A stretch of 64,000 bases of DNA from Acidobacteriota bacterium (GTDB taxonomy: Bacteria > Acidobacteriota > UBA890 > WLXD01): assembly GCA_963666055.2 (NCBI GenBank), contig CAXWPH010000001.1, positions 32,001-96,000 of the forward strand, written 5' to 3'. The notes under the pieces are model-generated. The model was not told the DNA's origin and ran no database searches. It was given only the letters and a program-made list of their open reading frames with translations. Below are positions 20,365-45,465 of the stretch, one piece after another; the stretch's first letter is position 1; each line of letters starts with the position of its first letter. The translations under genes and the position numbers were made by a program.

Positions 20365-20482
20365 CGCGCCTGTCCCCCATGGTAAGTTTGTTCTCGGCCG
20401 ACCCAGATATTGGACGTTATGAAAAACGCGAGCAAGCGCCGCGTCGTCGATACCGGCGCCCAAGCACGCGACAGGAGACAGA

Positions 20483-27724: not shown

Positions 27725-28270
27725 ATGGCAACCTTGCTGCAAGAAGAGTTCATCGCCTGGCAATGCAGGGTGCGGAAAGAAGCGGTTCGCATGTATGGCG
27801 GACGGCCGCGTGCCGGTATGCGCCCCGGCGTGGCGCGAACGGACGGCAGCCTGATATCCGAGATCACCGTTCTGTTAGCCGAAGAGGATCCCGAGGTGCA
27901 CACCGGCTTCTTCCGCCACATCGTCCGCCAAACGCCGGATCCGAAGAAACGCTACGAAAGCGCCATCAAGCTGCTAGCTGCGGAGTACTACAACCGGCCC
28001 GAGAGGTTCTCGGGCATGCTCACGGCGCAGTTTGCCCACGATTCGGCAATAGCCTCCGAGCTGGTCGAAGCCGGTCGTTGCGTGCTGGCGTTCGCGCAAG
28101 GGGCGCGTGCGTATGGGCTACCTAGCGCTGTCGAAGAGTTTGTCTCTTCCGACGCCAACCACCAGGCGACCTGTTGGCACAACCACCTGTTCAATCCGTG
28201 CCCGCCCGACAAGATCCGGGTGCTCGGGTTCAGGCCCATCTGGGCAAAGGGTTGGAGGCTGAACCGCTAG
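27725..28270 (+). CDS. hypothetical protein
   Basis: 181-aa ORF with natural composition (FIAWQCRVR, WHNHLFNP) filling the gap, convergent on the methylamine cluster. Confidence 0.7.
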   Translation: MATLLQEEFIAWQCRVRKEAVRMYGGRPRAGMRPGVARTDGSLISEITVLLAEEDPEVHTGFFRHIVRQTPDPKKRYESAIKLLAAEYYNRPERFSGMLTAQFAHDSAIASELVEAGRCVLAFAQGARAYGLPSAVEEFVSSDANHQATCWHNHLFNPCPPDKIRVLGFRPIWAKGWRLNR

Positions 28271-28600: not shown

Positions 28601-29992
28601 CTAGCCCCCGGCGACGCGCAGCTCTTCGCCGACGAGTTCGCCGAACGCCGCGGTCTCATCAGCCAGCACTTGATGATCCAGACCCGCCAGCTCGATGGCG
28701 CGTGGGATACGCAGCATATCGAACTTCTTCAAGACCGCGCCGAGGACGAAACACGGCGCAAATCCCAGCACGAAGAACATGATGAAGGCCCCCGCAAGCT
28801 GACCCCACGGTGTGATGTTGGCGAACTCGGGGTTCGGTGAGCTCGGGTACCCCCAGAGCATGAATCCGGCGATCACCACACCGAGCACGCCGGCGTAGCC
28901 ATGCACCGCGACCGCGCCTACCGCGTCGTCGATCTTGAACCTCCTCTCCACCCAGTGGTGCAGCTTATACAAGCACAGCACTCCGAACGCGCCGATGAGC
29001 AGCGCTTGCAGCGGATGGTAGAGGTCGTTGCCCGCGGAAGCGGTGATGATGCCCGCGAGGCCGCCCGAGAACGTCCAGTAGGGATCGCCCTTGGAGACGA
29101 AGTAGCCGGCGAACAGCCCGCCTGACAGCGACATTAGGAAGTTGAAGGTGATCGCGCTCAGCGTCGTCGGCGTGAGGTAGATCGTCGTCGCCGCGAAGAA
29201 GGTACGGGCAGAGTCCGGATCGATGTCGATGATCGGGATGTTGCACGCCGCGTAGAAGCCCCAGAAGCCGGTGTAAATCATGAACAGGCCGATAATCACC
29301 AGCCAGCTGTTTTGCGGCGGAAACGCTCGCGCTGTGCCATCGGAACGGAACCGTCCGATACGCGGCCCGAGGTGGTAGAGAACGGCCAACGCCGAGCCGC
29401 CGCTGATGGCATGGATCACGCCTGACGCGTAGGCGTCGTGATACCCGAGCAGTCGCACCATCCAGCCCTCACCGGACCAGCCCCAGGCAGCGTCGACGAC
29501 CCAGGTGATCGAGCCCAGCATGATGGCGAAGAGCCAGAAAGCGCTCGATCGAATGCGCTCGATGACAGCGCCGGAAAGGATCGAAGCGCAGGTCCAGGAG
29601 AACAGCAGGAACGCTCCGAAGAACACGCCGTTGAGGCGCGCCCAGGTCGCCGCGTCGCCCGGAGTCACCCCCGCCTGAACCGGTTGGCCACCCATGTGGG
29701 TGCCCATGAGCTCGCTCCATGGGAGCGCGAACGGAGCGGAGATCAAGCCGCCGGTAATGCCCGGTCCATTCTGCAGCGCGAAATAGATCCACCATCCGAA
29801 GAAGAAGAACGTCACGGTGATCAACGGAATCACCATCGCATTCTTCATCAAGGTGTGCATCATGTTCTTCTGGCGCGACACCCCGACCTCGTACAGGCAG
29901 AACCCGACATGGATCAGGAACATCAGGACGATGCAGACCCAGTAGTAGAACTCCGTGAAGATGACGGTAAGGGCGGTGAGCTCGTTTTCCAT
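28601..29992 (-). CDS. amt: Amt-family ammonium/methylammonium transporter
   Basis: About 11 TM segments; SGAVIER, twin His (GVIH, AVAVHG), LGPRIGRF, IDDAVGA. Confidence 0.9.
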   Translation of the reverse strand: MENELTALTVIFTEFYYWVCIVLMFLIHVGFCLYEVGVSRQKNMMHTLMKNAMVIPLITVTFFFFGWWIYFALQNGPGITGGLISAPFALPWSELMGTHMGGQPVQAGVTPGDAATWARLNGVFFGAFLLFSWTCASILSGAVIERIRSSAFWLFAIMLGSITWVVDAAWGWSGEGWMVRLLGYHDAYASGVIHAISGGSALAVLYHLGPRIGRFRSDGTARAFPPQNSWLVIIGLFMIYTGFWGFYAACNIPIIDIDPDSARTFFAATTIYLTPTTLSAITFNFLMSLSGGLFAGYFVSKGDPYWTFSGGLAGIITASAGNDLYHPLQALLIGAFGVLCLYKLHHWVERRFKIDDAVGAVAVHGYAGVLGVVIAGFMLWGYPSSPNPEFANITPWGQLAGAFIMFFVLGFAPCFVLGAVLKKFDMLRIPRAIELAGLDHQVLADETAAFGELVGEELRVAGG

Positions 29993-30062: not shown

Positions 30063-31403
30063 CTAGCTCCAGGGGTAGGGGCTGTTGGACACCGGGTGCA
30101 ATTTCCCCGCGGCATAACGCGAGAAGCGAAACGGCTCGAGCAACACGCTTCGATTGCCAACGATCTCCTCCGCCACGAGCTTGCCGACACCGAGCATCTT
30201 GTAGCCGTGGTTGGAGTCGGCGATGAAGTAGCAGTTGCCGCGGAAGACATCGAATACCGGGAAGCTGTCTGCCGTGAACGAGCCGATACCGCCTGACGGC
30301 TCCTCGCCGCGGAACAGAGCGGACTTGCCAGCGAAGCGCTCCTGGCAAAACGCCAGCGCCGAGCACCACATGTTGGCGAAATCCTCGCCGACGATGAAGT
30401 CGGGCGATTTGGGCCCGTATGGATCGACTGCCACATCATCGGCATCCTTGTCGACCTTGTAGGGCATGGCGCCACCTTGAACGCCCCCGAAGTTGAAGTC
30501 CGGTTTGTAGTAGATGCCCCATATCTGGTCGGTGATCAGCGAGCCATCGAGGTCGGAGTAGAGCGGCGCGTCGGTGTCGATGTGCACCACCGGGGGCAAC
30601 TCGCCGTCGTTTGTCCGCTGGAGATCAGGCTCGACGCCGAGCGTGCCCTCTTGCAGGCACCAGTAACGCCACATTGGGATGTTCTCGTGCACGGTGCCGT
30701 TGTCGTTGACGGTGATGGTCTTGGGCAGCTCGAGCATGTCCCAGATGTGCTTCACCCACGGGCCCACACCCACGACGACGTAATCGGTGCGGATCGTCCC
30801 CTGGTCGGTCTCCACGGCGGTGATTCCGGCATCGGTGTACTGGAAGCCGGCAACTTTCACCCCGGAGTGGATCGTCACCCCGACGCCTTCCGCCTTGCCG
30901 GCAAGCCCGAGCATCGACGCCATGTTGTTGGCGTAACCACCCTTCTTCTCGTGCAAGACGGAGGTGATTCCACGAGCCCTCCAGTCGTGGAACAGACCCT
31001 TCATGTATTTCTCGGACTCGGCCGCTCCGACAATGAGCTCGGATTCGTAACCGATCGCCTTCTGTTGCTCGTAGATCTGCGCGACATCGGCCTCCATCAC
31101 GGCCGGACTGATCTGCATGTAGCCGACCGGATGATAGCTATACGCTTCCGGGTCGCTGTCCCATACCTCGACGCTATGCGCCATTAGCTCGCGCATTGCC
31201 GGCTGAAAATAGTTGTTGCGGATTACGCCGCAGGCAATCCCCGACGCTCCGGCGCCGACGCCTTCCTTGTCGAGCACGATAATGTCGGCCCCACTTCCCT
31301 GCCCCCGTGCTTTCAGCTCAAGCGCCAGATGATAGGCGGTGCTCAGGCCGTGAATGCCGGCACCGATGACGACGTACTTGCTTGCTTCCGGTAAAGAGCT
31401 CAT
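30063..31403 (-). CDS. DAO/sarcosine-oxidase-beta-family FAD-dependent oxidoreductase
   Basis: VVIGAGIHGLSTAYHLA, GASGIACGVIRNNY, DSNHGYKM, EPFRFSRY. Confidence 0.85.
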   Translation of the reverse strand: MSSLPEASKYVVIGAGIHGLSTAYHLALELKARGQGSGADIIVLDKEGVGAGASGIACGVIRNNYFQPAMRELMAHSVEVWDSDPEAYSYHPVGYMQISPAVMEADVAQIYEQQKAIGYESELIVGAAESEKYMKGLFHDWRARGITSVLHEKKGGYANNMASMLGLAGKAEGVGVTIHSGVKVAGFQYTDAGITAVETDQGTIRTDYVVVGVGPWVKHIWDMLELPKTITVNDNGTVHENIPMWRYWCLQEGTLGVEPDLQRTNDGELPPVVHIDTDAPLYSDLDGSLITDQIWGIYYKPDFNFGGVQGGAMPYKVDKDADDVAVDPYGPKSPDFIVGEDFANMWCSALAFCQERFAGKSALFRGEEPSGGIGSFTADSFPVFDVFRGNCYFIADSNHGYKMLGVGKLVAEEIVGNRSVLLEPFRFSRYAAGKLHPVSNSPYPWS

Positions 31404-31411
31404 CGAAAACC

Positions 31412-33757
31412 TCAGCTACGAGGACGTTTCTTGCCGGGGTCATAGAACGGGAACTGCACCACGGTCGCCGCGATGCGCTTCTGATGCCCGTCGAGCTTAC
31501 CGACTTCCAGCTCGGCGCCAGGGTCAGCGTGCTCCTTGGCCAACCGGCACAGGGCGATGTTCTTTCGCAGGATGGGAGAGCGCGTGCCGCTGGTGATCAC
31601 TCCCACCTGACTGCGACCGGCGTACACGCCGTCGCCGTGGCCACCGGTCTCGCTGCCTTCGAGCTCCAGGCCGACCAGCAGTCGCTGCGGGTGCGCTTTG
31701 CGCTCGACGAGGGCTGCCCGACCAACGAAATCGTCATCCGTGCTCTCGAGGTCAACGGTGAACCCGATGCCTGCTTCGAACGGATCCACCTGGTCGTCGT
31801 ACTCGTATCCTGGGAAGATCAGCCCCGACTCGATGCGCAAGATGTCGAGAGCATCCAGGCCTAGCGGCGCCAGATCGTGCGGCTCGCCCGCCTCCCAGAT
31901 CGCATCCCAAACGGCAACGGCATCGTTGGGGTGGCACCAGACCTCATAGCCGAGCTCACCCGTGTAGCCGGTTCGGGATACCAGCAGCGGCGTGCCGTCT
32001 GCCGCTGCTACGCGGCCGACGGTAAAGCGGAACCACTTGAGCTCGTCGATGCTCGGCTGGGTGGGCGCGGTCCAGACAACCTCTCGAAGGATATCGCGGC
32101 TACTGGGGCCCTGCACGGCGATGTTGTGGAGCTGTTCCGACGACGACTTGACCCACACCTTGAGCCGCCGTTTCTCGGCCTGTTCACGCAGCCAGATGCC
32201 GTCCGTCGCGTTGCCGCCGATCCAACGGAAGTTGTCGGCGCCGAGGCGGAACAACGTGCCGTCGTCCAGCAGACCGCCGGTCTCATTACACATCGACGTA
32301 TACGACACCTGACCGACGGCTACGCGGCGCACATTGCGGGTGAGCGTCGCCTGCATCAGTGCTTCGGCACCGGGGCCGAGAACCTCGAACTTGCGAAGGG
32401 CCGACAGATCCATCACCACCGCGCCCTCGCGGCAGGCGTAATACTCCTTGATGGCGCCGTAGTCGGTGAATTCCGTCGGCAGCCAGTAGCCGCCATATTC
32501 GGTGAACTTCCGAGTCAACGCCGAGGTACGCGGGTGGAACCCGGTCTCGCGCGTCAGCTTGGGCTCGGCGTCAGGAGTCATCCGATGTGCGATCCCCATC
32601 GAAAAAGAGCTCTTGGCCGGATACACGCGAACGTGCACCTCAGTGGGATTCCAGGCATTGGCAGCATCGATGTCGTCGGGACAAGCCGAGGTCAAACAGA
32701 CGAGATCGGTCAGCGCCCGGAGCAAGACGTAGTCGCCCGGCCGCGACCACGGCTCGTCGAGGTACAGGACGTTGTTGTCGTCGATGCGGGTATTGTAGAA
32801 GAAGTTGATCGCCGGCCAACCTCGCCGCGATGCGATGGTGTATGGATCCAGCGCGGCGCTGAAGTTGTCAGAGCAATTGGCGTGGCCGAAGTAGCCCATG
32901 TCCTCGTAGTACTTCGCCGTGCATGCCAGCCCGAAGGTGTCGTGGCGCCCGACCGTGTCGCGTACGACCTCGAGAAGCGCCTGGAGGTCCTGGTCATAGA
33001 ACTTCGAATACAAGCCGGGCGCTGGGTAGGCCGCACCCATGAACGTCCGAGTAGCCGTGGCGTCGAGACCTTTCTCCACCCCGTTTTGCAAGGCGCCGGA
33101 ACGAAACGCGAGAAAATCCGAGCATTGCCGTCCGGCCACGTCGATAACTTGGATGTACTCGCCGGCCTTCACCTCGTAGGCGCGTGCTGCGGCGCGCTCG
33201 ATGCGCATGTCGAGACGCATATCGCCAAGTGGTGTCGGGAGCGGTACCTTCGGAGTCTCGGTCACCCGGGCCCGCTGAACGATCACCCGCAGGTCGGTCG
33301 GCGGATCCTGCGCATCGACGCGCATCGGACCACCCGGTGCTCCAACAATGCAGATGACGTCACGCTCCGCCGTGAACGACTCCGCCGCTCCCGGAGGCCC
33401 ATCGCCGCGGAACAGCTGCAGCGCCGGCGCACCACGTGGATCGATACCGCGCGCCAGCAGAGCGGCGACCGCGGCGTCCGTATCGGCTTCCCGCTCAGCT
33501 TGCGCAATTCCCAGTACGCCCAGCTTGCTGTCGGCTGCGACGTTGAGCGCGGCGCTGTCCTCGCCGCCGGTTGGAGAGAAGACCGCCAGCTCGCAGCGCT
33601 GCCCGCCCTCGACGTCGGTGATGTCGATGCGGTCACCGGCCGCCAGCGCCACGACCGTGGCGCCACCGCCTGCGACTCGATACCGCTCCCTGCCGGGCGC
33701 CTCGGGGAGCAGGCCTCCCGCGACCCAGCGCGACCCCTCGAGCTGCGACAGGATCAC
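31412..33757 (-). CDS. tdm: trimethylamine N-oxide demethylase (DUF1989 + GcvT aminomethyltransferase domains)
   Basis: 781 aa; GRQCSDF, RHDTFGLAC..NCSDNF..SACPDD metal-binding Cys set, then GcvT DLSALRKFEV and SRTGYTGELGYE; methylamine-cluster context. Confidence 0.85.
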   Translation of the reverse strand: MILSQLEGSRWVAGGLLPEAPGRERYRVAGGGATVVALAAGDRIDITDVEGGQRCELAVFSPTGGEDSAALNVAADSKLGVLGIAQAEREADTDAAVAALLARGIDPRGAPALQLFRGDGPPGAAESFTAERDVICIVGAPGGPMRVDAQDPPTDLRVIVQRARVTETPKVPLPTPLGDMRLDMRIERAAARAYEVKAGEYIQVIDVAGRQCSDFLAFRSGALQNGVEKGLDATATRTFMGAAYPAPGLYSKFYDQDLQALLEVVRDTVGRHDTFGLACTAKYYEDMGYFGHANCSDNFSAALDPYTIASRRGWPAINFFYNTRIDDNNVLYLDEPWSRPGDYVLLRALTDLVCLTSACPDDIDAANAWNPTEVHVRVYPAKSSFSMGIAHRMTPDAEPKLTRETGFHPRTSALTRKFTEYGGYWLPTEFTDYGAIKEYYACREGAVVMDLSALRKFEVLGPGAEALMQATLTRNVRRVAVGQVSYTSMCNETGGLLDDGTLFRLGADNFRWIGGNATDGIWLREQAEKRRLKVWVKSSSEQLHNIAVQGPSSRDILREVVWTAPTQPSIDELKWFRFTVGRVAAADGTPLLVSRTGYTGELGYEVWCHPNDAVAVWDAIWEAGEPHDLAPLGLDALDILRIESGLIFPGYEYDDQVDPFEAGIGFTVDLESTDDDFVGRAALVERKAHPQRLLVGLELEGSETGGHGDGVYAGRSQVGVITSGTRSPILRKNIALCRLAKEHADPGAELEVGKLDGHQKRIAATVVQFPFYDPGKKRPRS

Positions 33758-35151
33758 TGCGACTCCTCGGCCTCCGCGAGCAGTTCCTGGGCCAGCGCGC
33801 TCTTGGCCGCAGCGTCCATCTTCTTGATCTCGTTGTGGAGTACGCGCTCGTTAACCGATTGGTTCCAGTAGTCGATCGAGTCGAACCCCAATAACACCGC
33901 CTTGCCGACAAACTGCCGCAGTACCTCGTTGGTCGGGCCCATGACCCAACCAGCCTTGCCGTCGCGAAGGTAACGCTCGATGCCCAGGCCCGGCTTGTAG
34001 CCGGTTCCGCCACAAGCGTGGAGCATCTTGTCGGCAACGTTGGCGACGTTCTTGGCGGCGGTAAACTTCACCTGCCACATCCAGTGCAGCACGGTCGATC
34101 GCGGCAGCACCGCGACGTCCTCGTGGATCGACCAGTCGCAGTCGTTGGTCTTCTGGTCCATCGCCGCGGTCAACTGGTAGACGAACGCGCGCGACGTGTT
34201 GGTATCGATCACGGCCTCACCAATGTAGTCCTGAATGGTCGGGTAATCGCAGACCCGCATGCCCACGTCGACGTGTTTCTTCTTGGTCGTGTGCCCCTTC
34301 GCGATATCGATCAGACCCATCGATATGCCGTTCCAGCAGGACGACGAGCACGCCAGAAAGAAGGGATCGACGGCCTCGTCATTGGAGCTCGCGCCGTCAC
34401 CGATCCGACCGATGAGACGACCCTCGGGAATCGTCTTGTCCTCTACCTGCAGCGGCCCCGATTGGTTGCCACGCAGACCGAGACCGTCCCAGGTCGATGG
34501 ATCGGCGCTGATCTCGTCGGCCATGATCAGGAAGCACGATAGGTCCGAGTAGTCGCCATCGAAGTTCGGGCTGGTGGTCTGTATGACGTACCAGTCGGCG
34601 AACCCGCCTGAAGTAGTCCACGACGACTTCTTGTTGACCTTCCAGCCGTCCTCGACGCGCTCCGCGCTGGAGGAGAACGGATACCAGAAGTGCGATCCGG
34701 TCTCCGGATCCGAGTACGACAGGGTGCCGATCAGGACCTCATCGTCGAGGCGCCGCATGAGGCTCTGGATGGTCTCGTTACCGTGGGCCCGGAACATCGC
34801 CGCGGCGACAGCGCTGACGTGCATGGTGTAGCACATCGCCGTGCTGGCGCATCCGTACCGAGCTATGGTCTCGACCACCATGGCCATGCAAGTGTGGCTC
34901 TCGCCGCGCCCACCGAGCTCCTTCGGCACCAACAAGCCGAGAAGACCGAGCGATGCGAGAGCCTCGAAGTTCTTGCGCGGAAAGATCAGGTCGCGATCGC
35001 TCTCCACGGCGTTGTCACGCATCGTGCTCTGGCAGAGATCGATGAGCGACGCCTGAAGCTCCTGCTGTTCCGGGGTGAGGATCCATTGCGGATCCCAGTC
35101 GTAGGACAGCCCCCAGAACTCGTCGGCGCCCCACTTCTTGGTTTCGCTCAC
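33754..35151 (-). CDS. acyl-CoA-dehydrogenase-fold flavoprotein, possibly a flavin-dependent monooxygenase
   Basis: VPKELGGRG, SDPETGS, KSSWTTSG, GLRGNQSG, HACGGTGY..IERYLRD; GTGA overlap with the tdm start. Confidence 0.85.
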   Translation of the reverse strand: MSETKKWGADEFWGLSYDWDPQWILTPEQQELQASLIDLCQSTMRDNAVESDRDLIFPRKNFEALASLGLLGLLVPKELGGRGESHTCMAMVVETIARYGCASTAMCYTMHVSAVAAAMFRAHGNETIQSLMRRLDDEVLIGTLSYSDPETGSHFWYPFSSSAERVEDGWKVNKKSSWTTSGGFADWYVIQTTSPNFDGDYSDLSCFLIMADEISADPSTWDGLGLRGNQSGPLQVEDKTIPEGRLIGRIGDGASSNDEAVDPFFLACSSSCWNGISMGLIDIAKGHTTKKKHVDVGMRVCDYPTIQDYIGEAVIDTNTSRAFVYQLTAAMDQKTNDCDWSIHEDVAVLPRSTVLHWMWQVKFTAAKNVANVADKMLHACGGTGYKPGLGIERYLRDGKAGWVMGPTNEVLRQFVGKAVLLGFDSIDYWNQSVNERVLHNEIKKMDAAAKSALAQELLAEAEESQ

Positions 35152-35221: not shown

Positions 35222-35638
35222 TCAGAACTTCTTGTGCCGCTCTCCCAGGTCGTAGAGCGGGTGCTGTGGCGACATTTGGAATTTCAGCAGCAGCTCGCGC
35301 GCCACCATGTCGCGTTCCTGCTGCGAGTCGGGCAGCTCCATGTCTTCCGGGACCACCACCCAGCCGTTGATGTTGCGGTCGAAGACGGCCGAACGACCTT
35401 CCTCGTAGCCCATGTGAACATCTTCCATCCAGTTGAGATCCGGCCAGCCCATGTGTTCGATGTACTTCTCGAGCAGCGGGGTCATCAGCGAGTAGTCCGG
35501 CACCAGGTTGACGTCGTACCGGTAGCCGATGTGCTGACCGATCTCGAGCTCACGGTCGGTGTCCAACCCGCTCGATTTGAGATAGTAGTCGACGTCCTCC
35601 GCTTGGGACTCGCTGTTCTTTTGGGCTTCGTCGCTCAC
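35222..35638 (-). CDS. hypothetical acidic protein (138 aa)
   Basis: Co-oriented ORF 21 bp after mgsC, GTG start with GAGAG upstream, C/G-ending codons like its neighbours. Confidence 0.8.
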   Translation of the reverse strand: MSDEAQKNSESQAEDVDYYLKSSGLDTDRELEIGQHIGYRYDVNLVPDYSLMTPLLEKYIEHMGWPDLNWMEDVHMGYEEGRSAVFDRNINGWVVVPEDMELPDSQQERDMVARELLLKFQMSPQHPLYDLGERHKKF

Positions 35639-35659: not shown

Positions 35660-37003
35660 TCAGAATCGGGTCATTTCAGGGTGGCCGACAGTGTAGCGAG
35701 TGCCCGCAATGGGCACCTCCGCCATAGCCGAGGCCTCGGAGGTCAGCGCCGCCAGGTCTTCCGGCTCCAGTGAGTGGACGTTGGTCTTGCCGCAGGCGCG
35801 CGCCATCATCTGACATTCGATGGTCAGCGTGTGCAGGAAGTTGAACACGCGAATCGCCGCTTCGTCGGGATCCAGACGCTTGCGCAGCTCGGGATCCTGA
35901 GTGGCGACACCCACGGGGCACAAACCGGTGTGGCAGTGGTAGCAGTAGCCCGCCGGCACGCCGATCGTTCCCTCGAAGTCTGCTTCGGGGATGTCGCGGT
36001 TGCAGTTGAGCGCCACCATCGCCGCCGTACCGATCGCAATGGCGTCGGCACCCAGCGCCAGCGCTTTGGCCACATCCGCGCCATTGCGGATGCCGCCGGC
36101 GTAGACCAGCGATATCTCGCCCGTCTTGCCGACGTCGTCGAGCGCGTGCCGTGCCTGCCGGATCGCGGCGATCCCCGGAACGCCAGTCTCCTCGGTGGCG
36201 AGATGGGGCCCGGCCCCGGTGGAGCCTTCCATACCGTCAAGGTAGATGCTGTCCGGGCCCGTCTTGGCGGCCATGCGAACGTCGTCATAGACGCGTGCCG
36301 CTCCGAGCTTCAACTGAATGGGGATCTCGCCGTTGGTGGCCTCGCGGATCTCGTCGATCTTCAGCGCCAGATCATCTGGCCCCAGCCAATCCGGGTGCCG
36401 CGCCGGCGAGCGCTGATCGATCCCCGCCGGCAGGTTGCGCATCTCCGCCACCTGATCGGTGACCTTCTGCCCCATGAGGTGGCCGCCGAGACCCACCTTG
36501 CAGCCCTGTCCGATGAAGAACTCGCAGGCGTCGGCAAGGCGCAAGTGGTGCGGGTTGAATCCGTAACGCGACTGGATGCACTGGTAGAGCCACTTCGACG
36601 AGTACCGGCGCTCGTCGGGCAGCATGCCGCCCTCTCCCGAGCAGGTGGCCGTTCCGGCCATCGTGGCGCCGCGTGCCAGCGCCACCTTCGCCTCGTAGGA
36701 CAGCGCGCCGAAGCTCATTCCGGTGATGTAGATCGGGATGTCCATCAACAGCGGACGCTTCGCTTTGGGGCCGATGACGGTCTCCGTGAGGCACTTTTCA
36801 CGGTAGCCCTCGATGACGAACCGAGTGAGCGTGCCGGGCAGAAAGGTGAGGTCGTCCCAGGTCGGGATCTTCTTGAACAGCGCCATACCGCGCATGCGGT
36901 AACGACCCAGATCCGACTTGATGTGGATGTCATCGATGACGCTGGGCTTGAACACGAAGTTCTGCCCCAGAATGTCCTTGTTACGCTTGCCGTTGTCGGT
37001 CAC
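35660..37003 (-). CDS. mgsC: N-methylglutamate synthase subunit C (FMN-binding glutamate synthase domain)
   Basis: GMSFGALS, SGEGGM, GQGCKVGLGGHLMGQK, DQRSPARHPD, CYHCHTGLCPVG 3Fe-4S motif. Confidence 0.88.
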   Translation of the reverse strand: MTDNGKRNKDILGQNFVFKPSVIDDIHIKSDLGRYRMRGMALFKKIPTWDDLTFLPGTLTRFVIEGYREKCLTETVIGPKAKRPLLMDIPIYITGMSFGALSYEAKVALARGATMAGTATCSGEGGMLPDERRYSSKWLYQCIQSRYGFNPHHLRLADACEFFIGQGCKVGLGGHLMGQKVTDQVAEMRNLPAGIDQRSPARHPDWLGPDDLALKIDEIREATNGEIPIQLKLGAARVYDDVRMAAKTGPDSIYLDGMEGSTGAGPHLATEETGVPGIAAIRQARHALDDVGKTGEISLVYAGGIRNGADVAKALALGADAIAIGTAAMVALNCNRDIPEADFEGTIGVPAGYCYHCHTGLCPVGVATQDPELRKRLDPDEAAIRVFNFLHTLTIECQMMARACGKTNVHSLEPEDLAALTSEASAMAEVPIAGTRYTVGHPEMTRF

Positions 37004-37836
37004 AGCACGATCTTCTTTTCAGTGGGTTCGAGGTTGTCGTAGTTCCACAGCTGTTTGCCGGCGACGATCTTCTGCAGCTTCTCTACGCCGTTGGGCGCCT
37101 TGAGACCGTAGAGGTCGAGCTTACGCTGCAAGAACGCCGCCTCGTGATCGGTCATCTCGCCAGGCACCGCGTCGATGCCCAGCGAAGCGATGTCGCCGCC
37201 GACATAGATGGTCCCGTCGTACATCGAGTCGCCAAGGCTCTCGTCGGCGTCGCCGAGGATGATCATGCGCCCGCGCTGCATCATGAACGCTGACAACATT
37301 CCGGTACGCCCACCGACAATGATCGTTCCGCCTTTCTGATTGATTCCGGTTCGCGCTCCCACGTCGCCGCGGCAGACGAGGTCGCCTCCGCGGATGGCGG
37401 CGCCGAAGCATGACCCGGCGTTCTTCTCCACCACGATCGTGCCTGCCATCATGTTCTCGCCACACGACCAGCCGACCCGGCCTCGGATTCGTACATTCGG
37501 GCCATCGTTCAAGCCGATCCCGAAATAGCCGAGCGAGCCATCGAAGTCCAGCTTCAGCCGGTTGAGGATTCCAACCCCGAGGGAGTGTTTGGCGCCTGGG
37601 TTGCGGACGATGATGTGGCCATGTCCCTCGCCGATGAGCTCGCGGATGCGCACGTTGATCGCACTGGTGTCCATCTCGGCAGCATCAAATTCGGCGGAGT
37701 GATCGAAGTCGACCTCGACACTGTCCGGATAGACGAGATTCTCCCCCTCCTCGGCCCGGAAGAAGGTCTTGTAGGAACGGCCCTTCAGCGGTTCCGCGTG
37801 CACGTCGATCGGTTCACTCGTCGATTGCTTTGCCAT
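37000..37836 (-). CDS. mgsB: N-methylglutamate synthase subunit B (GXGXG/FwdC-like beta-helix)
   Basis: NPGAKHSLGVG, ENMMAG, AFMMQRG, GDSMYDG; lies between mgsA and mgsC. Confidence 0.85.
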   Translation of the reverse strand: MAKQSTSEPIDVHAEPLKGRSYKTFFRAEEGENLVYPDSVEVDFDHSAEFDAAEMDTSAINVRIRELIGEGHGHIIVRNPGAKHSLGVGILNRLKLDFDGSLGYFGIGLNDGPNVRIRGRVGWSCGENMMAGTIVVEKNAGSCFGAAIRGGDLVCRGDVGARTGINQKGGTIIVGGRTGMLSAFMMQRGRMIILGDADESLGDSMYDGTIYVGGDIASLGIDAVPGEMTDHEAAFLQRKLDLYGLKAPNGVEKLQKIVAGKQLWNYDNLEPTEKKIVL

Positions 37837-37838
37837 CG

Positions 37839-38786
37839 CTAGTTGGTGCTCCACACCCGTACCTCACCAGCGTACGGATCGAAGGTATCAATTTCCTCGT
37901 GAAAAACGGTGCGGATCGCGACCTCTTCGGATGCCATGACGATGCAGTCGTCGCTTTCGTACAAGACCATGGGTTTGGCGGCCATCGTGTCCTTGGCCAG
38001 CCCCAGCGCGTCGCTGGTAGCAACCAGGTAGCTGAACACCCCGTCGAGCTCGTCGACCGACTGGTGCATCGCCTCTTCGAGTGACTTGCCGCGTTGGGTC
38101 AGCTCGGCGACGTAGACGGCAATCAGCTCCGAGTCGCAGTCGGAGAGAAAGCGGTGACCGGTGCGCTCGAGCTCACGCCGCTTGCTCCAGTAGTTGGTGA
38201 GCTGACCGTTGTGCACCACGCAAACGTCGCTCACCGGATAAGCCCAGTAGGGATGGGCCGAGCGGATGTCGACGTCCGATTCCGTCGCCATCCGTGTGTG
38301 GCCGATGGCGTGAGTGCCGACGAACTCGCCCATCTCGTACTGATCGCTGACCTCGGTGGCGTCGCCCAGATCCTTGACGAGCTCGAGCGCATTGCCGATC
38401 GAGAGAACCTCGGCACCCTCGACGTCCTCGATGTAGTCGGCCAGACGCACCAGGCTATCGAGCTCGGGATCGAATCGAAGGCGATAGAGGAAGGCGTACT
38501 CAGTCGGCGCCTCGGCCACCTGGATCTCGCCGCCCATGGACTCGATGCGCTCGTCCACCTGCGCCCGGCGCTGCTTGATCAACTCGTGGATCTCGAACCC
38601 GGAGTCGAGATCGTCGCTCTCGGCCACCTTGAAGCGCAACAGCAGCTCGCCTTCAGTCGGCACGCCGTAGAAGGCGAAGCCGGTCGAATCCGGGCCGCGG
38701 TGCTTCATGGCCTGGAGCATGCCGGTCATCTCGGCGCCCACGTTGCCGGTCTTGTTACGGTGAATGATTCCTGCGATTCCACACAT
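37839..38786 (-). CDS. mgsA: N-methylglutamate synthase subunit A (class II glutamine amidotransferase)
   Basis: MCGIAG N-terminal nucleophile, HRGPDSTG, GHTRMATES, VVHNGQLTN, DSE. Confidence 0.88.
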   Translation of the reverse strand: MCGIAGIIHRNKTGNVGAEMTGMLQAMKHRGPDSTGFAFYGVPTEGELLLRFKVAESDDLDSGFEIHELIKQRRAQVDERIESMGGEIQVAEAPTEYAFLYRLRFDPELDSLVRLADYIEDVEGAEVLSIGNALELVKDLGDATEVSDQYEMGEFVGTHAIGHTRMATESDVDIRSAHPYWAYPVSDVCVVHNGQLTNYWSKRRELERTGHRFLSDCDSELIAVYVAELTQRGKSLEEAMHQSVDELDGVFSYLVATSDALGLAKDTMAAKPMVLYESDDCIVMASEEVAIRTVFHEEIDTFDPYAGEVRVWSTN

Positions 38787-38810: not shown

Positions 38811-40274
38811 CTACGGCAAGCAGTCCAGGTAGGTTTCGAGGTCCCATTCGGTGGTCTGAGCGAGGAACCGCTCCCACTCATCGGTCTTGTAGTGCATGAA
38901 GACGCGGTACATATCGCCGGGCAACGCTGACTTGACGACCTCGTCAGCGGCAAGCGTATCCAGGGCAGCACCGAGCGACAAGGGCAGCTTGATTACCTCC
39001 TTGCCCTCCTCGATGGCATCGTAGATGTTGCGTTCCTCGGGCGGGCCAGGGTCGGCCTTGGTGCGGATGCCGTCGTCAAACGCCGCCAGAATCCCGGAAG
39101 CCATCAGGTAGGGATTGACCATCGAGTCGACGGCCCGGTACTCGAAGCGGTCGGGCGAAGAAACGCGCAGCCCGCAGGTACGGTTCTGGAAGCCCCAGTC
39201 GGCGAAGATCGGAGCCCAGAACCCCGTCTCGCACAGGCGACGGTAGGAATTCACCGTCGAGCAGCCGATCGCCGTGAGCGCCGGCAGATGCTCTTTCAGC
39301 CCGCCCAGGCACTGCAGCCCAAGCTCCGACGGAATGCGCTGCCCGGCCTCCGGCAAGAAGACGTTCTCACCGCCCTTCCGGTAGGTGAAGTTCTCTTCCA
39401 TACCGGGTAACGGGTCGTGGCCGAGCGCCTTGACGGTGTTCTCGCCGCCGCGCCACAAGGAGACGTTGTGATGGCACCCTGATGCCGACACCCCCATGAA
39501 CGGCTTCGACATGAAGCAGGCGATCATGTTGTGCTGCTTGGCGACCTCGGCGCAGATCTGTCGATAGGTGGTCAGGCGGTCACAATTTCGGAGCGCGTCG
39601 TCGTAGGTGAAGTTGAGCTCGAGCTGTCCGGGAGCGTCCTCGTGATCGCCCTGGATGATGTCCAGACCCATGGCACGGCTGTACTCGACCACCTGCAGCA
39701 CCACCGGACGCAGCGTTTCGAACTGATCGATGTGGTAGCAGAACGGCCGCGTAACGCCGCCATCCGGCCGACCGTCGGCACCCTTCTTCAACCACATCAT
39801 CTCCGGCTCGGTACCCGCGCGCATCTCGAGTCCATGATCGGCGGTGAATTGCTCCTGCGTGCGGCGCAGGTTGCCGCGACAGTCCGACGTCAGAAAGGCC
39901 CCCGGGTTCTCCGGCTCTTCGCGGTTGCGGAAGCAGGTGCAGAAGACGCGCCCGATACGCTTTTCCCAGGGCAATTGCACGAACGTCTCCACATCCGGGA
40001 TGCCGACGAGCTCGGATGATTCCGGTCCGTAGCCGATGTAGTTGCCGTGCCGATCGGTGAACAGGTTGGCGGTGGAGCCGTAGACGAGCTGAAAGCCGTC
40101 CTCGGCGAACTTCTCCCAGTGGTCCGCGGGAGCGCCCTTACCGACGATGCGGCCGGTTACCGAGACGAACTGGTAGTAGATGTACTCGATCCCGAGCACG
40201 TCAATCTGCCTACGAACTTCCTTGACCAGCTCGTCGCGGCCGTCGGCACGAACATAGGCTTCTAGATCGGTCAT
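38811..40274 (-). CDS. glutamine-synthetase-family gamma-glutamyl-amine ligase (probable GmaS, divergent type)
   Basis: GTEPEM, DHEDAPGQLELNF, FMSKPF..GCHHN, NSYRRL, QNRT, RFEYR; embedded between mgdD and mgsA. Confidence 0.8.
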   Translation of the reverse strand: MTDLEAYVRADGRDELVKEVRRQIDVLGIEYIYYQFVSVTGRIVGKGAPADHWEKFAEDGFQLVYGSTANLFTDRHGNYIGYGPESSELVGIPDVETFVQLPWEKRIGRVFCTCFRNREEPENPGAFLTSDCRGNLRRTQEQFTADHGLEMRAGTEPEMMWLKKGADGRPDGGVTRPFCYHIDQFETLRPVVLQVVEYSRAMGLDIIQGDHEDAPGQLELNFTYDDALRNCDRLTTYRQICAEVAKQHNMIACFMSKPFMGVSASGCHHNVSLWRGGENTVKALGHDPLPGMEENFTYRKGGENVFLPEAGQRIPSELGLQCLGGLKEHLPALTAIGCSTVNSYRRLCETGFWAPIFADWGFQNRTCGLRVSSPDRFEYRAVDSMVNPYLMASGILAAFDDGIRTKADPGPPEERNIYDAIEEGKEVIKLPLSLGAALDTLAADEVVKSALPGDMYRVFMHYKTDEWERFLAQTTEWDLETYLDCLP

Positions 40275-40987
40275 GTTCCCCTCTCAGTACTGTCTGCAGC
40301 GATCTTTGACAGCGCATCGTGCCCGATCGGCGTGATGCCGTACTCCTCGCCCGCCTCCAGAATCGTCTCCCACACATAGGCCGCACTCGACCGCGCTCCG
40401 ACCACCGTGAAGGCGGGAAGCTGGCCAATGTCACGGCGAACGACAAGCTGTGCCGTCTTCGCGAAGCTCGTGCGCTTGGCCACCCCGTCAGGAAACGCGG
40501 CGGGGCTGAAGTCCAGGCCGCACAGCTTGCTCATGAATTCCGCTACGCGCGGGCCGATTATACGGACGCTGGCCTGCCCGTGCGTCATCACCGTCACGGT
40601 GATCCGATGACCCGCCGATTGCGCCGCAGACTCGATCGCGCCGGCGGTCGATTCCTCATCCCCGGGGGCGGTGATGACCGAGAACAAATCGGCACGCAAA
40701 CGATAGCAGCGTCCGTTCCCGACGGTCGCGCTTTCGCCGATCGCCAGTGCCGGCAGCCCGTAGGCGGCGCGCAGCGTGGTTTCCGCATCGGCGCCCTCGA
40801 TCCTCAAGTTGCCATCCGCCGAGACGTCCGCGATCGCCAGCCGGTCGCGCGCCGCGGCCTGCTCCGACGCCGACTCGGTATAGGCATCTGCGATCAGCCA
40901 GCCGTCGCCGATTTCGACGAACCGCGCCCCGAGACCCTTGGTCACTCCGTACAAGGGTGTCAGCAGGGCCGGCTTCGTGGCGCTCAC
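40271..40987 (-). CDS. soxG: N-methylglutamate dehydrogenase/sarcosine oxidase gamma subunit
   Basis: GcvT-like fold; SKLCGLDF..FP..AKRTSFAK, RSSAAYVWETI; GTGA overlap with the soxA stop. Confidence 0.8.
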   Translation of the reverse strand: MSATKPALLTPLYGVTKGLGARFVEIGDGWLIADAYTESASEQAAARDRLAIADVSADGNLRIEGADAETTLRAAYGLPALAIGESATVGNGRCYRLRADLFSVITAPGDEESTAGAIESAAQSAGHRITVTVMTHGQASVRIIGPRVAEFMSKLCGLDFSPAAFPDGVAKRTSFAKTAQLVVRRDIGQLPAFTVVGARSSAAYVWETILEAGEEYGITPIGHDALSKIAADSTERGT

Positions 40988-43884
40988 GTGCGCAACCTCT
41001 TGCCCTCGGGATCGTAGAAGGCGCCGTGCCAAACGCGCGCCGACTGCGATCGGCCGTCGACGTGGATGGTGAACTCGGCACCCTCGCGATCACCGAGCTC
41101 CGCCGGCAGCCAGCACAACCCAATGATCTCTCCGAGGGTCGGGCTCAAGCGGCAGGAGGTGATCCAGCCGATTACCTCCCGCTTGCCGTTGGATGCAGCC
41201 ACGATTTGCATCCCTTCCTCGGGCTTGGCGCCGCCCGACGAGACCTTGAATCCGACCAGGCGCTGATGCGGCCCATGCTCTGCAACCCGACTCAGGTGTC
41301 GCATCCCGAGGAAATCAGACTTGTCCAGCTTCACCGCCCATTCCATGTTCGCCATGATCGGATCGGTGAGCCCGTCGGTGTCGTGGCCAACGATGCTATG
41401 GCCCTTCTCGAGCCGCAGGACACGCTGCGCCTCGACACCGAACGGCTTGATGCCGTGTGGCTGACCTGCGGCGATCAGCGCCTCCCAAAGATGCACGGTG
41501 TAGCCCGACGGGCAGTGGATCTCGTAGGACAGCTCGCCGGTAAAACCGATGCGCAGGAGCTGGCACGGCACTCCTGCCACCACACCGCTGCGAACCCCCA
41601 TGTAGGGGAACGCCTCGTTGGACAGGTCGACATCGGTGAGGTCGCCAAGAACCTCGCGCGCACGCGGACCGGCGAGGTTCATTGCCGCGAACGCCTCGGT
41701 CACGTTGGTCAGGTGAAGACCCTCGCCCCAGCCCGACTGGATCCACCACTGCATCCAGTCGTACATACCGGTCGCACCGGAGGAAGTGGTGCTCATGTAC
41801 CACTCCTGCTCGCCGACGCGGGCGCAGACACCATCGTCGAGCACGATGCCTTCGTCGTTGCACATCACACCGTAGCGCGCCTGGCCGACGCCCAACTTCC
41901 TCCACTTGTTGATGTAGACGCGTTGCAGCAAGTCCGGCACGCCGGGGCCGGTCAGGCGAAGCTTCCCGAGCGAGCTCACGTCGATCAGGCCCACCGCGTC
42001 GCGCACCGCTTTGACCTCGGCGATGGCGTCGCCGTAGTGCTCGGCGCGGATCCAACGTCCCGCCACCATCGGCTTGCCGCCGTTCGCCAGGTGCCAATCG
42101 TGCAGCGCGCCAAGCTGCACCGGCTCCATGTCCTGCCCGGCCAGCGTGCCGAGTGAAACCGGCGTCGCCGGCGGTCGCGAGGTCGTCGTGCCCGTGTCCG
42201 GGATCGAACGCTCCGTCGCCCGGGCGCACATCTGGATGGCGGCCATCGAGCACATCTTTCCCTGGCAGGGCCCCATCGAGACGGTGCTGTAACGCTTGAG
42301 CAGCTGCATGCTGTCGAACCCTTCGGCGATGGTCGCGAGGATGTCCTCCTCCGTGACGTCTTCGCACAGGCACACGAAGCGCTTCTTCGGCATGCCGCCC
42401 GGAACGCTCACGCGCGGCGAGCTGCGCCGGGGCTCGGAGCTCTTGAGCCGCTGCAGCTCAGCCGCCTGCGCGGCGTCCGGCGGCGGCCCGATGCCCAGCC
42501 GGTGAGCCGCCCCCCGGCCCGCAATCGCCCCCTCCAGGAGCTGTGTCGCCAGCTCGTGCGTCCCGGCGGCGCGGCCGACGACATGAAGATGCGACGGCAG
42601 CTCGGTCGGAAGCATCTCGGCGTGATCGGCGTCGTAGCGTGTCTTGCCGCCGGCAAGATGTGTGAGGTCGGTGTCCGGCGTCCAGCCGACGCTGACCACC
42701 AGCAGGTCGCAGTTGATCGTCTTGCAGGTTCCCTTGTCCACGCCATCGCCGCTGGCGGTCTGAGCGATGATGGCCGCAGTAACGCCCTTCCCCCCGACCG
42801 CCTTGACCACCGTGTGCTCGTAATGAACCGGAACTCCCTGTGCCACCAGAGCCTCGCCGTGCGGACTCGCGCACGCCTCGGCAGGGCGCTCATCGACGAT
42901 CGCAGCCACCTCCACCCCCGCGGCACGCAGATCAGAAGCGACGTCCCAGCCGTCGTCGTTGGCAGTGGCGACCAGCGCCCGCCGCCCGGCGGCCACACCG
43001 AACTGGTGCAGCAGTCGTCGAACGGCGCCGCCCAGCATCACCCCGGGCAAATCGTTGTTTTCGAACTGCAGCGGCCGCTCGAAGGCCCCGGTAGCCGCCA
43101 CCAGCGAACCCAGGCGGACCTTGAAGAGACGGTTACCTGACTTCGCTGCTAGCCAATCCTTCCGATACCACCCCAGCACCGAGGTATTGGTCAGCACCTC
43201 GACATTGTCCATGCCGGCGAGCCCGCTTCGCAGCCGCTCGACCGCAGCCGTCTCGGAGTCCGGTCGCGCGCCGGCAAATCTGAGATGGCCGCCGAGCTCA
43301 GCGTTCTCGTCGATCAGCAGCACGCGCGCACCGCTCTTGCCGGCCGCATGGGCCGCGCTGATCCCCGCCGGGCCGCCGCCGGCAACCACGATGTCGGCGT
43401 GCAGATAGCGCTTGTCGTACTTGCCGCGGGGTGTTTTCGGATCGACCACGCCAAGGCCGGCAGCATGGCGCAGCACATGCTCGTAGAAGGGCCACAGCCA
43501 CTTCGGCCGAATGAACGTCTTGTAGTAGAAACCGGCGGGCATGAAGCGCGACGCGAACCGCGACAGCGACAGAAGGTCGAACCGCAGCGACGGCCAGGCG
43601 TTCTGCGAGCGCACCTGAATGCCCTCTTCGACCGGCCGCATGCAGGCGCGGACGTTGGGCTCGTCGCCTATCTGAACCAGGCAGTTAGGACAGTGACCCG
43701 AGCAACAAAGCAGACCCCGAGGCCGGTGGTACTTGAACGACCGGCTGATCACCCGCACTCCCGACGCGGCCAGCGCCGAGCCGATCGTGTCGCCCTCGTG
43801 CGCCATCACCTTCCTGCCGTCGAACGTAAACGCGAGGCTCGACGATCGGTCGATCGAACTGCCGCCAGCCGGCAGGCGCTTCAC
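40984..43884 (-). CDS. soxA: N-methylglutamate dehydrogenase/sarcosine oxidase alpha subunit
   Basis: SRSFKYHRPRG, AGFYYKTF, GGGPAG, LKRYSTVSMGPCQGK, C-terminal GcvT domain. Confidence 0.9.
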   Translation of the reverse strand: MKRLPAGGSSIDRSSSLAFTFDGRKVMAHEGDTIGSALAASGVRVISRSFKYHRPRGLLCCSGHCPNCLVQIGDEPNVRACMRPVEEGIQVRSQNAWPSLRFDLLSLSRFASRFMPAGFYYKTFIRPKWLWPFYEHVLRHAAGLGVVDPKTPRGKYDKRYLHADIVVAGGGPAGISAAHAAGKSGARVLLIDENAELGGHLRFAGARPDSETAAVERLRSGLAGMDNVEVLTNTSVLGWYRKDWLAAKSGNRLFKVRLGSLVAATGAFERPLQFENNDLPGVMLGGAVRRLLHQFGVAAGRRALVATANDDGWDVASDLRAAGVEVAAIVDERPAEACASPHGEALVAQGVPVHYEHTVVKAVGGKGVTAAIIAQTASGDGVDKGTCKTINCDLLVVSVGWTPDTDLTHLAGGKTRYDADHAEMLPTELPSHLHVVGRAAGTHELATQLLEGAIAGRGAAHRLGIGPPPDAAQAAELQRLKSSEPRRSSPRVSVPGGMPKKRFVCLCEDVTEEDILATIAEGFDSMQLLKRYSTVSMGPCQGKMCSMAAIQMCARATERSIPDTGTTTSRPPATPVSLGTLAGQDMEPVQLGALHDWHLANGGKPMVAGRWIRAEHYGDAIAEVKAVRDAVGLIDVSSLGKLRLTGPGVPDLLQRVYINKWRKLGVGQARYGVMCNDEGIVLDDGVCARVGEQEWYMSTTSSGATGMYDWMQWWIQSGWGEGLHLTNVTEAFAAMNLAGPRAREVLGDLTDVDLSNEAFPYMGVRSGVVAGVPCQLLRIGFTGELSYEIHCPSGYTVHLWEALIAAGQPHGIKPFGVEAQRVLRLEKGHSIVGHDTDGLTDPIMANMEWAVKLDKSDFLGMRHLSRVAEHGPHQRLVGFKVSSGGAKPEEGMQIVAASNGKREVIGWITSCRLSPTLGEIIGLCWLPAELGDREGAEFTIHVDGRSQSARVWHGAFYDPEGKRLRT

Positions 43885-44180
43885 GGCTTCGCCCCTGTTT
43901 CAGAATCCGGACCCGCGTTGTCGTCCGGGCGCCACAGGTAGGTGCGCAATATCTCGCCCGTCTTGGTGTGCCGCTCGGCAAGGAACCACAGGCCGCAGCC
44001 GGTGCCGTGGTGCCACCACTCCTTCTGCACTCCCACCTTGTTGCTGCGCAGATGCAGGTAGTCGACCCACTCGGCTTCGCTGGCGCCGGCCGGATCGGCC
44101 GGCCGGGGATTGTACTCGTTGCCGAAGTGGAACTCGCTCACGTTCCTCGGGCCGCAATTGGGACAGGTCAGTAGCAGCAC
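43881..44180 (-). CDS. soxD: N-methylglutamate dehydrogenase/sarcosine oxidase delta subunit
   Basis: CPNCGPR..EF..EWWHHGTGC Zn site. Confidence 0.9.
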   Translation of the reverse strand: MLLLTCPNCGPRNVSEFHFGNEYNPRPADPAGASEAEWVDYLHLRSNKVGVQKEWWHHGTGCGLWFLAERHTKTGEILRTYLWRPDDNAGPDSETGAKP

Positions 44181-44226
44181 GGCGTCGTCCTGCTCCTATG
44201 CATCAGCGCTAGCCTCACTGCTCGCA

Positions 44227-45465
44227 TCAATGCCCAACCGAGGCGGCACCGCCCTCTCCGACGAGATCGTACTCGGCGAATCGAGACAGCCGGAATGGGC
44301 GAATCAGGTCGGGAGTACGCCCGGTAGCAAGCAACTCGGCCAGGGTCTTGCCGCAGATCGGCGACGCCTTGAAGCCATAGGTGCCCCAACCCAGATCGAT
44401 GTGGAACCCCTCCACCGGGGTCTTGCCCATGATCGGGCTGTAGTCGGGCGTCATGTCACAGAGACCGGCCCACTGTCGAAGGACACGCACCTTCGGCAGG
44501 CACGGGAACAGCGCCAGCAGATGCCCTGCCAGCGTCTCGAGGAAGTCGAGCGACGAGTTCATCGAATACGAGGCGTACGGGTCGACGCTGCCGCCGCACA
44601 CGAGCTCACCGCGATCCGACTGGCTGACGTAGGCGTGCAGGCTGCCGGAAACGATCACCACGTTGAGGAACGGCTTCAGTGGCTCGGTGACGAACGCCTG
44701 CAGCGGGCGCGTCGACATGGGGAGCTTCACGCCTGCCATGTCGGAGATGATCGCCCCCCAACCGGCGGTAGCGTTGAGCACGGTGTCGGTCTTGATCCGT
44801 CCCCGTGTGGTCTGGACGCCGATGACCTTGCCGTTCTGGATGTCTATTCCGGTGGCGGCGGTGTTCTGGTGGATATGCACGCCACGCGCGTCGGCCTGAT
44901 GGGCGTAGCCCCACACCACCGCGTCATGGCGAATGATGCCGCCGGGAGGGTGGTAGAGGGCCGCCAGAATCGGATATCGCGGCCGGTCGCTGAGGTCCAA
45001 ATCCGGGCACAGCCTGGCGATCTCCTCGGGGAAGATCAGCCTCGAATCGACGCCGACCAGCCGGTTGGTCTCGGCGCGTCGCCGCATCGTGATCACCGAG
45101 GAGTCGCTGTGTGCCAGCGTCAGGTGTCCGCGCTGCCCCAGCATGACGTTGAAGTCGAGGTCACGGGCCAAGTCTTCGTAGAGCTTGAGGCTGGCGTCGT
45201 AGAAACGCACCCCGTCCGGCGTCAGGTAGTTGCTACGTACGATGGCGGTATTGCGCCCGCTCCCACCCGAACCGATGTAGGTCTTTTCGACGACCGCGAC
45301 ATCAGTGATGCCGTGGTCTTTGGCGAGGTGGTAGGCGCACGCAAGCCCATGCGCACCACCCCCGATGATGACCGCCTCATAGCTGTCCCGCAGCGAGTGC
45401 TGGCGCCACATACGTGGTAGTCGCTGGCGACCGGCCAGGGCTTCGCGGAACAGCTTTAGTGACAT
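44227..45465 (-). CDS. soxB: N-methylglutamate dehydrogenase/sarcosine oxidase beta subunit
   Basis: IIGGGAHG, GGSGRNTAIVRSNY, RHDAVVWGYA, DMTPDYSPI, GWGTYGFK; ATG 45465 chosen as start. Confidence 0.9.
   Translation of the reverse strand: MSLKLFREALAGRQRLPRMWRQHSLRDSYEAVIIGGGAHGLACAYHLAKDHGITDVAVVEKTYIGSGGSGRNTAIVRSNYLTPDGVRFYDASLKLYEDLARDLDFNVMLGQRGHLTLAHSDSSVITMRRRAETNRLVGVDSRLIFPEEIARLCPDLDLSDRPRYPILAALYHPPGGIIRHDAVVWGYAHQADARGVHIHQNTAATGIDIQNGKVIGVQTTRGRIKTDTVLNATAGWGAIISDMAGVKLPMSTRPLQAFVTEPLKPFLNVVIVSGSLHAYVSQSDRGELVCGGSVDPYASYSMNSSLDFLETLAGHLLALFPCLPKVRVLRQWAGLCDMTPDYSPIMGKTPVEGFHIDLGWGTYGFKASPICGKTLAELLATGRTPDLIRPFRLSRFAEYDLVGEGGAASVGH

Follow-up and report, generated by a model that had tools for sequence, protein, structure and literature searches.

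Which enzyme supplies trimethylamine N-oxide (TMAO) to the demethylase Tdm where no gene for the monooxygenase Tmm is found? The question is raised by a 64,000-nt stretch of the genome of an Acidobacteriota bacterium (assembly GCA_963666055.2, contig CAXWPH010000001.1, positions 32,001 to 96,000 of the forward strand; hereafter, the window), in which a gene of the acyl-CoA dehydrogenase (ACAD) fold overlaps the start of tdm. The known pathway of trimethylamine (TMA) degradation, that of Methylocella silvestris and Ruegeria pomeroyi, runs through Tmm, Tdm, DmmDABC and GmaS/Mgs/Mgd, Tmm being a class B flavin-containing monooxygenase (FMO). Judging from gene context, the ACAD-fold protein is probably the oxygenase half of a two-component TMA N-oxygenase which feeds Tdm and replaces the FMO-type Tmm. 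The first-pass annotation of this DNA had already proposed N-oxygenation of TMA or another methylated amine in place of tmm, and the analysis supports that proposal, the function being still deduced from the genomic neighborhood. The features concerned are:

31412..33757, minus strand: trimethylamine N-oxide demethylase (Tdm), 781 aa; NF053776, DUF1989 plus GcvT architecture
33754..35151, minus strand: ACAD-fold flavoprotein gene, 465 aa; Acyl-CoA_dh_N and Acyl-CoA_dh_1 Pfam matches above cut-off
33754..33757, minus strand: GTGA, in which the ACAD-fold stop and the tdm start overlap; GAGGAG precedes the GTG

The 4-bp GTGA overlap reported previously is indeed present, and the GTG start of tdm is closely preceded by GAGGAG, a Shine-Dalgarno-like sequence; the two genes are predicted to be translationally coupled. 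Their GC and third-position GC (GC3) contents are similar to those of the neighboring genes. By its sequence, the downstream protein is a genuine Tdm: it scores 1215 bits with NF053776 (cut-off 1100) and matches the Paracoccus TDM structure (PDB 9Q59) with an E-value of 3.6e-266. Residues for Zn and TMAO binding in Tdm are named in passages of PMC13619132; the protein has the Zn ligands C279, C295 and C359 as well as D214 and D361, and Y321 replaces Paracoccus F327.

Pfam and NCBIfam scans of the window (15+15+30 ORFs, small and shadow ORFs being partly scanned) found no FMO, electron transfer flavoprotein (ETF), CoA-ligase or beta-oxidation genes, as the annotation had stated. A search for tmm in the rest of the genome, suggested at that time as a check, found none either: the genome, 95.7% complete, has no match to FMO (PF00743), DmmA/B/C, TmoP or TMA dehydrogenase. 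Both the TMA-to-TMAO step and the step from dimethylamine (DMA) to methylamine are therefore without a known gene here. Two ETF gene pairs are located elsewhere in the genome, outside the window.

The 465-aa protein has the three-domain ACAD fold. Its Pfam matches are to ACAD families only, FMO-like PF00743 not being matched, and its closest PDB and fold matches, like its automatic database names, are those of true ACADs. It scores far below every curated ACAD cut-off; with the Rv1679/FadE16 family NF049984 it reaches 211.6 bits, the cut-off being 600. When RDGKAGWVMGPTN of this protein is aligned to RDAKITQIYEGTN, Gly405 stands at the SCAD/MCAD position of the catalytic Glu (YEGT loop), which confirms that this Glu is missing from the IYEGT-type motif. 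G405 is present in 222 of 222 aligned family rows, which are not independent of one another. A Glu at the alternative LCAD/IVD-type position, regarded beforehand as a possible refutation, was not found: the DYER of isovaleryl-CoA dehydrogenase 4o5m aligns with D262-P263-F264-F265 (helix G), none of the 222 rows has a Glu at position 264, and the Arg following the IVD-type Glu is also missing. The invariant acidic and aromatic residues of the alignment are D258, E259, H154-x-W156-Y157 and W402. Positions K/R291, Q307, G381-G382 and T407, which we take to be the flavin adenine dinucleotide (FAD)-contacting positions of ACADs, look retained in the family, so that the flavin is probably FAD.

Linkage to tdm and distribution relative to tmm

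In GTDB, 344 stretches encode a relative of the ACAD-fold protein; the locus counts given here refer to the best 80 of these 344, 69-90% identical, which come from eight named phyla. A tdm gene lies within 10 kb in 56 of the 80 loci, many of which are truncated. When 79 carrier genomes were chosen by similarity to the ACAD-fold protein alone (L039 was dropped, as it is the same metagenome-assembled genome (MAG) as L036), 75 were found to have tdm. Homologs unlinked to tdm had been foreseen as an argument against the proposal; linkage is what was obtained. D214, C279, C295 and C359 are kept in all 65 Tdms linked to ACAD-fold genes. Clustering of the neighboring genes revealed an HpaC-type flavin reductase (PF01613) in 42 of the 80 loci, less than 1 kb from the ACAD-fold gene in 24 and within 400 bp of tdm in 17 more; it is also present in all 12 Hyphomicrobiales loci fetched. 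No ETF was found among the annotated neighbor clusters of the family.

Nine Hyphomicrobiales genomes, which group together as a single clade in the Tdm tree, share a divergent tmoP and, next to it, the run ACAD-fold gene, flavin reductase, tdm, dmmD, dmmA, dmmB, dmmC, with no tmm in the cluster. This is the known aerobic TMA pathway, complete except for tmm. An Armatimonadota locus reads dmmA-dmmB-dmmC-ACAD-tdm, and in Rhizobium it is tmm that occupies the slot after dmmC. Of 71 loci with the ACAD-fold gene, 42 have it upstream of tdm in the same orientation and 29 have it converging on tdm, so that all 71 are upstream or convergent; of 32 loci with tmm, 21 show the convergent arrangement, 10 have tmm upstream and one has it downstream (31 of 32 upstream or convergent). 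These counts come from loci fetched around the genes, a non-random sample in which only L024 holds both. The arrangement in genome G508, where the ACAD-fold gene converges on tdm and the reductase diverges from it, recurs in G814 with tmm as the converging gene, and looks like an in-place swap of the oxygenase gene. Two tmm-positive genomes lacking the ACAD-fold gene have a flavin reductase beside tdm, namely G814 (locus L168, 9270-9734) and G149 (locus L144, 9076-9546); it is possibly a leftover after tmm displaced the ACAD-fold gene.

For the distribution study, the annotated Rhizobium pRL11 cluster provided the reference Tmm and Dmm proteins, its Tmm matching solved Tmm structures at E-values of 1e-228 to 1e-178. 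Only one of the 79 carrier genomes has tmm. PF11927 is matched in nine carriers; six of these matches were checked, five being only 24-32% identical, and a close DmmC is confirmed in one of the 79. Two even draws of genomes were then compared. The first comprised 401 Alphaproteobacteria, 36 of them tdm-positive, or 35 upon leaving out the draw center G024: none of the 20 genomes with tmm carries the ACAD-fold gene, against 8 of the 15 without (Fisher p 2.7e-4; 0.0015 with G024 included). The second comprised 401 Hyphomicrobiales, of which 95 are tdm-positive and 80 were tested with all three queries; the status of G047 and G397 was known separately, and the remaining 13, tested for the ACAD-fold gene only, were all negative. 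Among the 80, the ACAD-fold gene occurs in 8 of 70 genomes with tmm and in 4 of 10 without (p 0.038). In the scoring of tmm, G491 counts as negative despite a tmm fragment at a contig end, and G162, with a broken tmm, as positive. When the 115 tdm-positive genomes are pooled, none of the 45 with tmm and without dmmC has the gene, against 12 of the 25 without tmm. As a DMA enzyme should fill the former group and a Tmm substitute the latter, the distribution points to the TMA-to-TMAO step rather than to the DMA step. Because the sampled genomes are related, Fisher and pooled p-values overstate the support. The anti-correlation with tmm that had been predicted thus holds as a depletion, in the carriers and in both draws, and fails as a strict exclusion.

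Proposed reaction and rival explanations

ACAD-fold group D monooxygenases include HsaA, C2-HpaH, DszC, SfnB and Acinetobacter baylyi Dms1-3, as well as the N-oxygenases KijD3, ORF36 and DnmZ. In passages of PMC6165268 and PMC10696468, a Glu-less ACAD fold paired with a flavin reductase characterises the two-component monooxygenases of group D. Passages of PMC6165268 also report N-hydroxylation by such enzymes, and passages of PMC13352529 the oxidation of dimethyl sulfide to DMSO, a small methylated heteroatom comparable to TMA. The protein under study resembles group D in its ACAD fold without the catalytic Glu and in its frequent HpaC-type neighbor, and heteroatom oxidation is documented for the group; unlike HsaA, DszC, C2 and SfnB, it stays far below the curated cut-offs of these families. 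Its profile match to KijD3/DnmZ (E 1e-13 to 1e-11: 2.8e-13 for 3m9v, which like 4kcf is presumably KijD3, and 4.9e-11 for DnmZ) is weaker than that to ACADs (E 1e-29; 7.7e-30 for one ACAD). The closeness to KijD3/ORF36/DnmZ suggested at first is not supported, sequence and fold being at least as near to true ACADs, and these enzymes serve as a chemical precedent, not as shown relatives. From ACADs (SCAD/MCAD, IVD/LCAD) and the uncharacterised Rv1679/FadE16 the protein differs in its identity of ~22%, its lack of a catalytic base, an extra C-terminal helical tail and its methylamine gene context. With Tmm it shares the proposed reaction, TMA to TMAO, the place beside tdm, the gene layouts and the co-clustering with tmoP and dmmDABC; in contrast to the Rossmann FMO fold of Tmm, it has the ACAD fold, is predicted to need a separate flavin reductase, and is encoded mostly in tmm-less genomes, including those of Acidobacteriota, Latescibacterota and cyanobacteria.

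By analogy with group D monooxygenases, the flavin reductase would make reduced flavin from NAD(P)H, and the oxygenase would bind it. Reaction of O2 with the bound reduced flavin would give a C4a-hydroperoxyflavin, whose distal oxygen would be taken up by the amine nitrogen of TMA to yield TMAO. As far as the alignment indicates, D258, E259, H154-x-W156-Y157, W402 and F264/F265 (standing for the Glu/Arg pair) may rebuild the acyl-CoA site into a pocket for a small methylated amine. Tdm would convert TMAO into DMA and formaldehyde, and the products of the GmaS/Mgs/Mgd-like genes would process methylamine. The window has no PF01613-family flavin reductase. The sole PF01613 gene of the genome, on contig C2, is 34-53% identical to the tdm/ACAD-linked reductases of relatives, and its product would act in trans; three PF03358 genes are also present in the genome. 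In carriers without dmm, the oxygenase may also attack DMA.

Several observations weigh against a TMA N-oxygenase that stands in for Tmm. Nine genomes carry both the ACAD-fold gene and tmm, Virgifigura deserti has the two in one locus, and genome G778 has a 52% identical paralog with a reductase away from tdm in addition to a canonical tmm cluster. Seven of the nine Hyphomicrobiales with the complete cluster keep a lone tmm elsewhere (no tdm, dmm or gmaS/mgs genes were found in the 13-14 kb around it), the two earliest-branching members being without tmm. Of the 25 tdm-positive, tmm-less genomes, 13 have neither oxygenase gene, which means that tdm can be present where no TMA oxygenase is known. 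A Tdm tree of 117 rows (FastTree) requires seven or more label changes, and supported branches provide only four independent contrasts, 3.3 of them in the predicted direction and 0.1 in the opposite one, with a median p of 0.25, which is not significant. A PF01613-type reductase was not found in 38 of the 80 loci, some of them truncated, among which are the two closest relatives of the window and all 16 cyanobacterial loci. In fold, the protein resembles true ACADs at least as much as KijD3-type N-oxygenases; the best structural matches of the predicted model are true ACADs as well, and active-site loops 149-155 and 398-410 are poorly predicted in it (pLDDT below 50), so that the model is uninformative on the pocket. 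Finally, most genomes of the comparison are incomplete MAGs.

Part of this evidence could be accommodated by a reduced-flavin oxygenase for other or wider substrates (N-methylated tertiary amines, dimethyl sulfide), with N-oxides feeding Tdm or the enzyme working beside Tdm, and with TMA as a side substrate. Retention of the gene alongside tmm in nine genomes would fit such an enzyme, and so would the paralogs of 50-62% identity away from tdm (L112, L121, L123), the PhyH dioxygenase, desaturase or Cu amine oxidase neighbors in sub-lineages, and the oxidation of dimethyl sulfide by group D enzymes (passages of PMC13352529). Nevertheless, we consider this unlikely in view of the TMAO-site residues kept in the linked Tdms, the company of tmoP and dmmDABC in nine genomes, and the depletion of the gene where tmm is present. 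A DMA oxygenase that replaces DmmABC (DMA to methylamine) appears decidedly improbable. In nine genomes the gene shares its run with a full dmmDABC, and in another it comes immediately behind dmmABC; it is absent from 45 of 45 sampled tmm-positive, tdm-positive, dmmC-negative genomes, the very ones that would profit most from a DMA enzyme. What speaks for such an oxygenase is that DmmA/B/C were not found in this genome and that a close DmmC was confirmed in so few of the carriers; dmm-less tdm carriers are, however, common anyway (passages of PMC5520151).

The retained FAD-contact positions, the nearest structures, which are ACADs, the ETF genes elsewhere in the genome and the lack of a linked reductase in the window would all suit an amine dehydrogenase or oxidase that retains its FAD and passes electrons to ETF or O2 instead of acting as a monooxygenase. 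Oxidative demethylation would nonetheless bypass TMAO and render the tie to tdm (75 of 79 genomes) needless, and the recurrent partner of the family is a flavin reductase, no ETF appearing among the annotated neighbor clusters; the chance of a dehydrogenase is accordingly slim. Hardly credible is an ordinary ACAD lying by chance in a methylamine operon, in spite of the automatic names and the best PDB and fold matches: Glu is lacking at both catalytic positions, as is the Arg that follows the IVD-type one, the scores fall far below every curated ACAD cut-off, and linkage to tdm extends across eight phyla. The TMA N-oxygenase feeding Tdm is the reading retained in what follows.

Surrounding operon and side observations

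The gene pair belongs to a 17-kb minus-strand run comprising mgdABCD-like, gmaS-like and mgsABC-like genes, the gene of a 138-aa protein, the ACAD-fold gene, tdm, a SoxB-like gene and an Amt gene. The other members of this run and a plus-strand neighbor are:

27725..28270, plus strand: conserved 181-aa protein outside known families; occurs in methylamine clusters whether or not they contain the ACAD-fold gene
28601..29992, minus strand: putative Amt-family transporter (ammonium or methylated amine), from family matches; in 23 of 80 loci
30063..31403, minus strand: SoxB/DAO-like FAD oxidoreductase, 8 bp downstream of tdm; found in 10 of 80 loci, mostly next to gmaS
35222..35638, minus strand: 138-aa protein with no Pfam/NCBIfam match, immediately preceding the ACAD-fold gene; accompanies mgsC; in 21 of 80 loci
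35660..38786, minus strand: mgsABC-like genes for N-methylglutamate synthase, tentatively labelled by family matches and gene order
38811..40274, minus strand: GmaS-like protein of type III glutamine synthetase fold, scoring under the TIGR03105 cut-off; 31% identity to the Rhizobium glnT protein
40271..45603, minus strand: mgdABCD-like heterotetrameric sarcosine-oxidase-type genes, labels inferred

The SoxB-like oxidoreductase is a candidate for the DMA-to-methylamine step in this genome, where matches to Dmm and DMA dehydrogenase were not found; the oxygenase itself, through a side activity, is another. The DMA step is likewise without a known gene in SAR11, according to passages of PMC5520151. 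The 138-aa and 181-aa proteins travel with gmaS/mgsABC clusters, including those with tmm or with neither oxygenase. Among the residues of the 181-aa protein, WQC, WHN and Arg are invariant. As a possible substitute for the flavin reductase it was compared with Pfam, PDB and Atlas, with no match, and it occurs also in tmm clusters. A second glutamine-synthetase-fold gene (24942-26045, minus strand), near the cluster in 15 of 80 loci, is closer to the Rhizobium glnT/GmaS protein (41%) than the gmaS-like gene of the operon itself. At 19552-21922, 10 kb from tdm, lie genes for a HalD-like Fe/2-oxoglutarate protein and for a Rieske ring-hydroxylating alpha subunit whose N-terminus is twin-arginine-like. 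An OYE-type gene (15331-17295) was rejected as TMA dehydrogenase, its match to 2,4-dienoyl-CoA reductase (E 2.6e-79) exceeding that to TMA dehydrogenase (E 1e-52); no other full-length paralog of it was found in the genome. Rfam gave no match in 26000-47000, a promoter and terminator scan yielded no more than shuffled sequences did, and the plasmid collection contained no close relative of the ACAD-fold protein (best 31%).

In other genomes, cyanobacterial loci (L060, L064, L065, L077 and others) have the order PhyH dioxygenase, ACAD-fold gene, Cu amine oxidase, a short tdm without ~170 N-terminal residues, and amt, a layout that suggests the use of TMA as a nitrogen source. The same PhyH family also precedes tmm in L142, L147 and L149. 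The paralogs away from tdm are located in G462 (L121, 7230-8561), where the gene adjoins mgsABC-like genes, in G778 (L112, 7826-9154), where it adjoins a flavin reductase, and in G055 (L123, 6934-8274); they may act on another amine. Three of the 13 genomes with neither oxygenase gene, G300 (L134), G327 (L135) and G401 (L138), have divergent Tdm-like proteins of 45-50% identity on a long branch, perhaps a Tdm paralog with another substrate.

Novelty and significance of the family

No paper tying an ACAD-fold protein to tdm or to TMA oxidation was found in the main-text passages searched, so that an obscure report is possible; a tertiary-amine N-oxygenase of group D was not found in the same search. 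In the passages seen of a 2026 paper on TMA catabolism (PMC13390433), Tmm alone is named for the TMA-to-TMAO step, and the terms acyl-CoA and flavin reductase do not occur in its main text, the part searched. Passages of that paper also describe tmm, tdm and dmmA mutants of R. pomeroyi. The ACAD-fold proteins are a real, conserved and hitherto undescribed enzyme family, and probably a non-homologous replacement for Tmm within a known pathway. It seems likely that they constitute a widespread, independently evolved second TMA monooxygenase, ACAD-fold and reductase-fed, which can trade places with Tmm in tdm clusters. Aerobic TMA oxidation would then reach into Acidobacteriota, Latescibacterota, Gemmatimonadota, cyanobacteria and numerous Alphaproteobacteria that are counted as negative in surveys of tmm.

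If this is true, a step hitherto attributed to Tmm alone has a second, unrelated enzyme. TMA oxidation governs the escape of a volatile, aerosol-forming amine from sea and soil, and surveys of it count tmm. Of the 35 tdm-positive genomes in the even draw of Alphaproteobacteria, 8 have the ACAD-fold gene and lack tmm; if TMAO is the product, estimates based on tmm would overlook a substantial group of TMA oxidisers, entire phyla among them. The chemistry of the ACAD fold would, moreover, gain tertiary-amine N-oxygenation, and the pathway would offer a clear case of non-homologous enzyme replacement.

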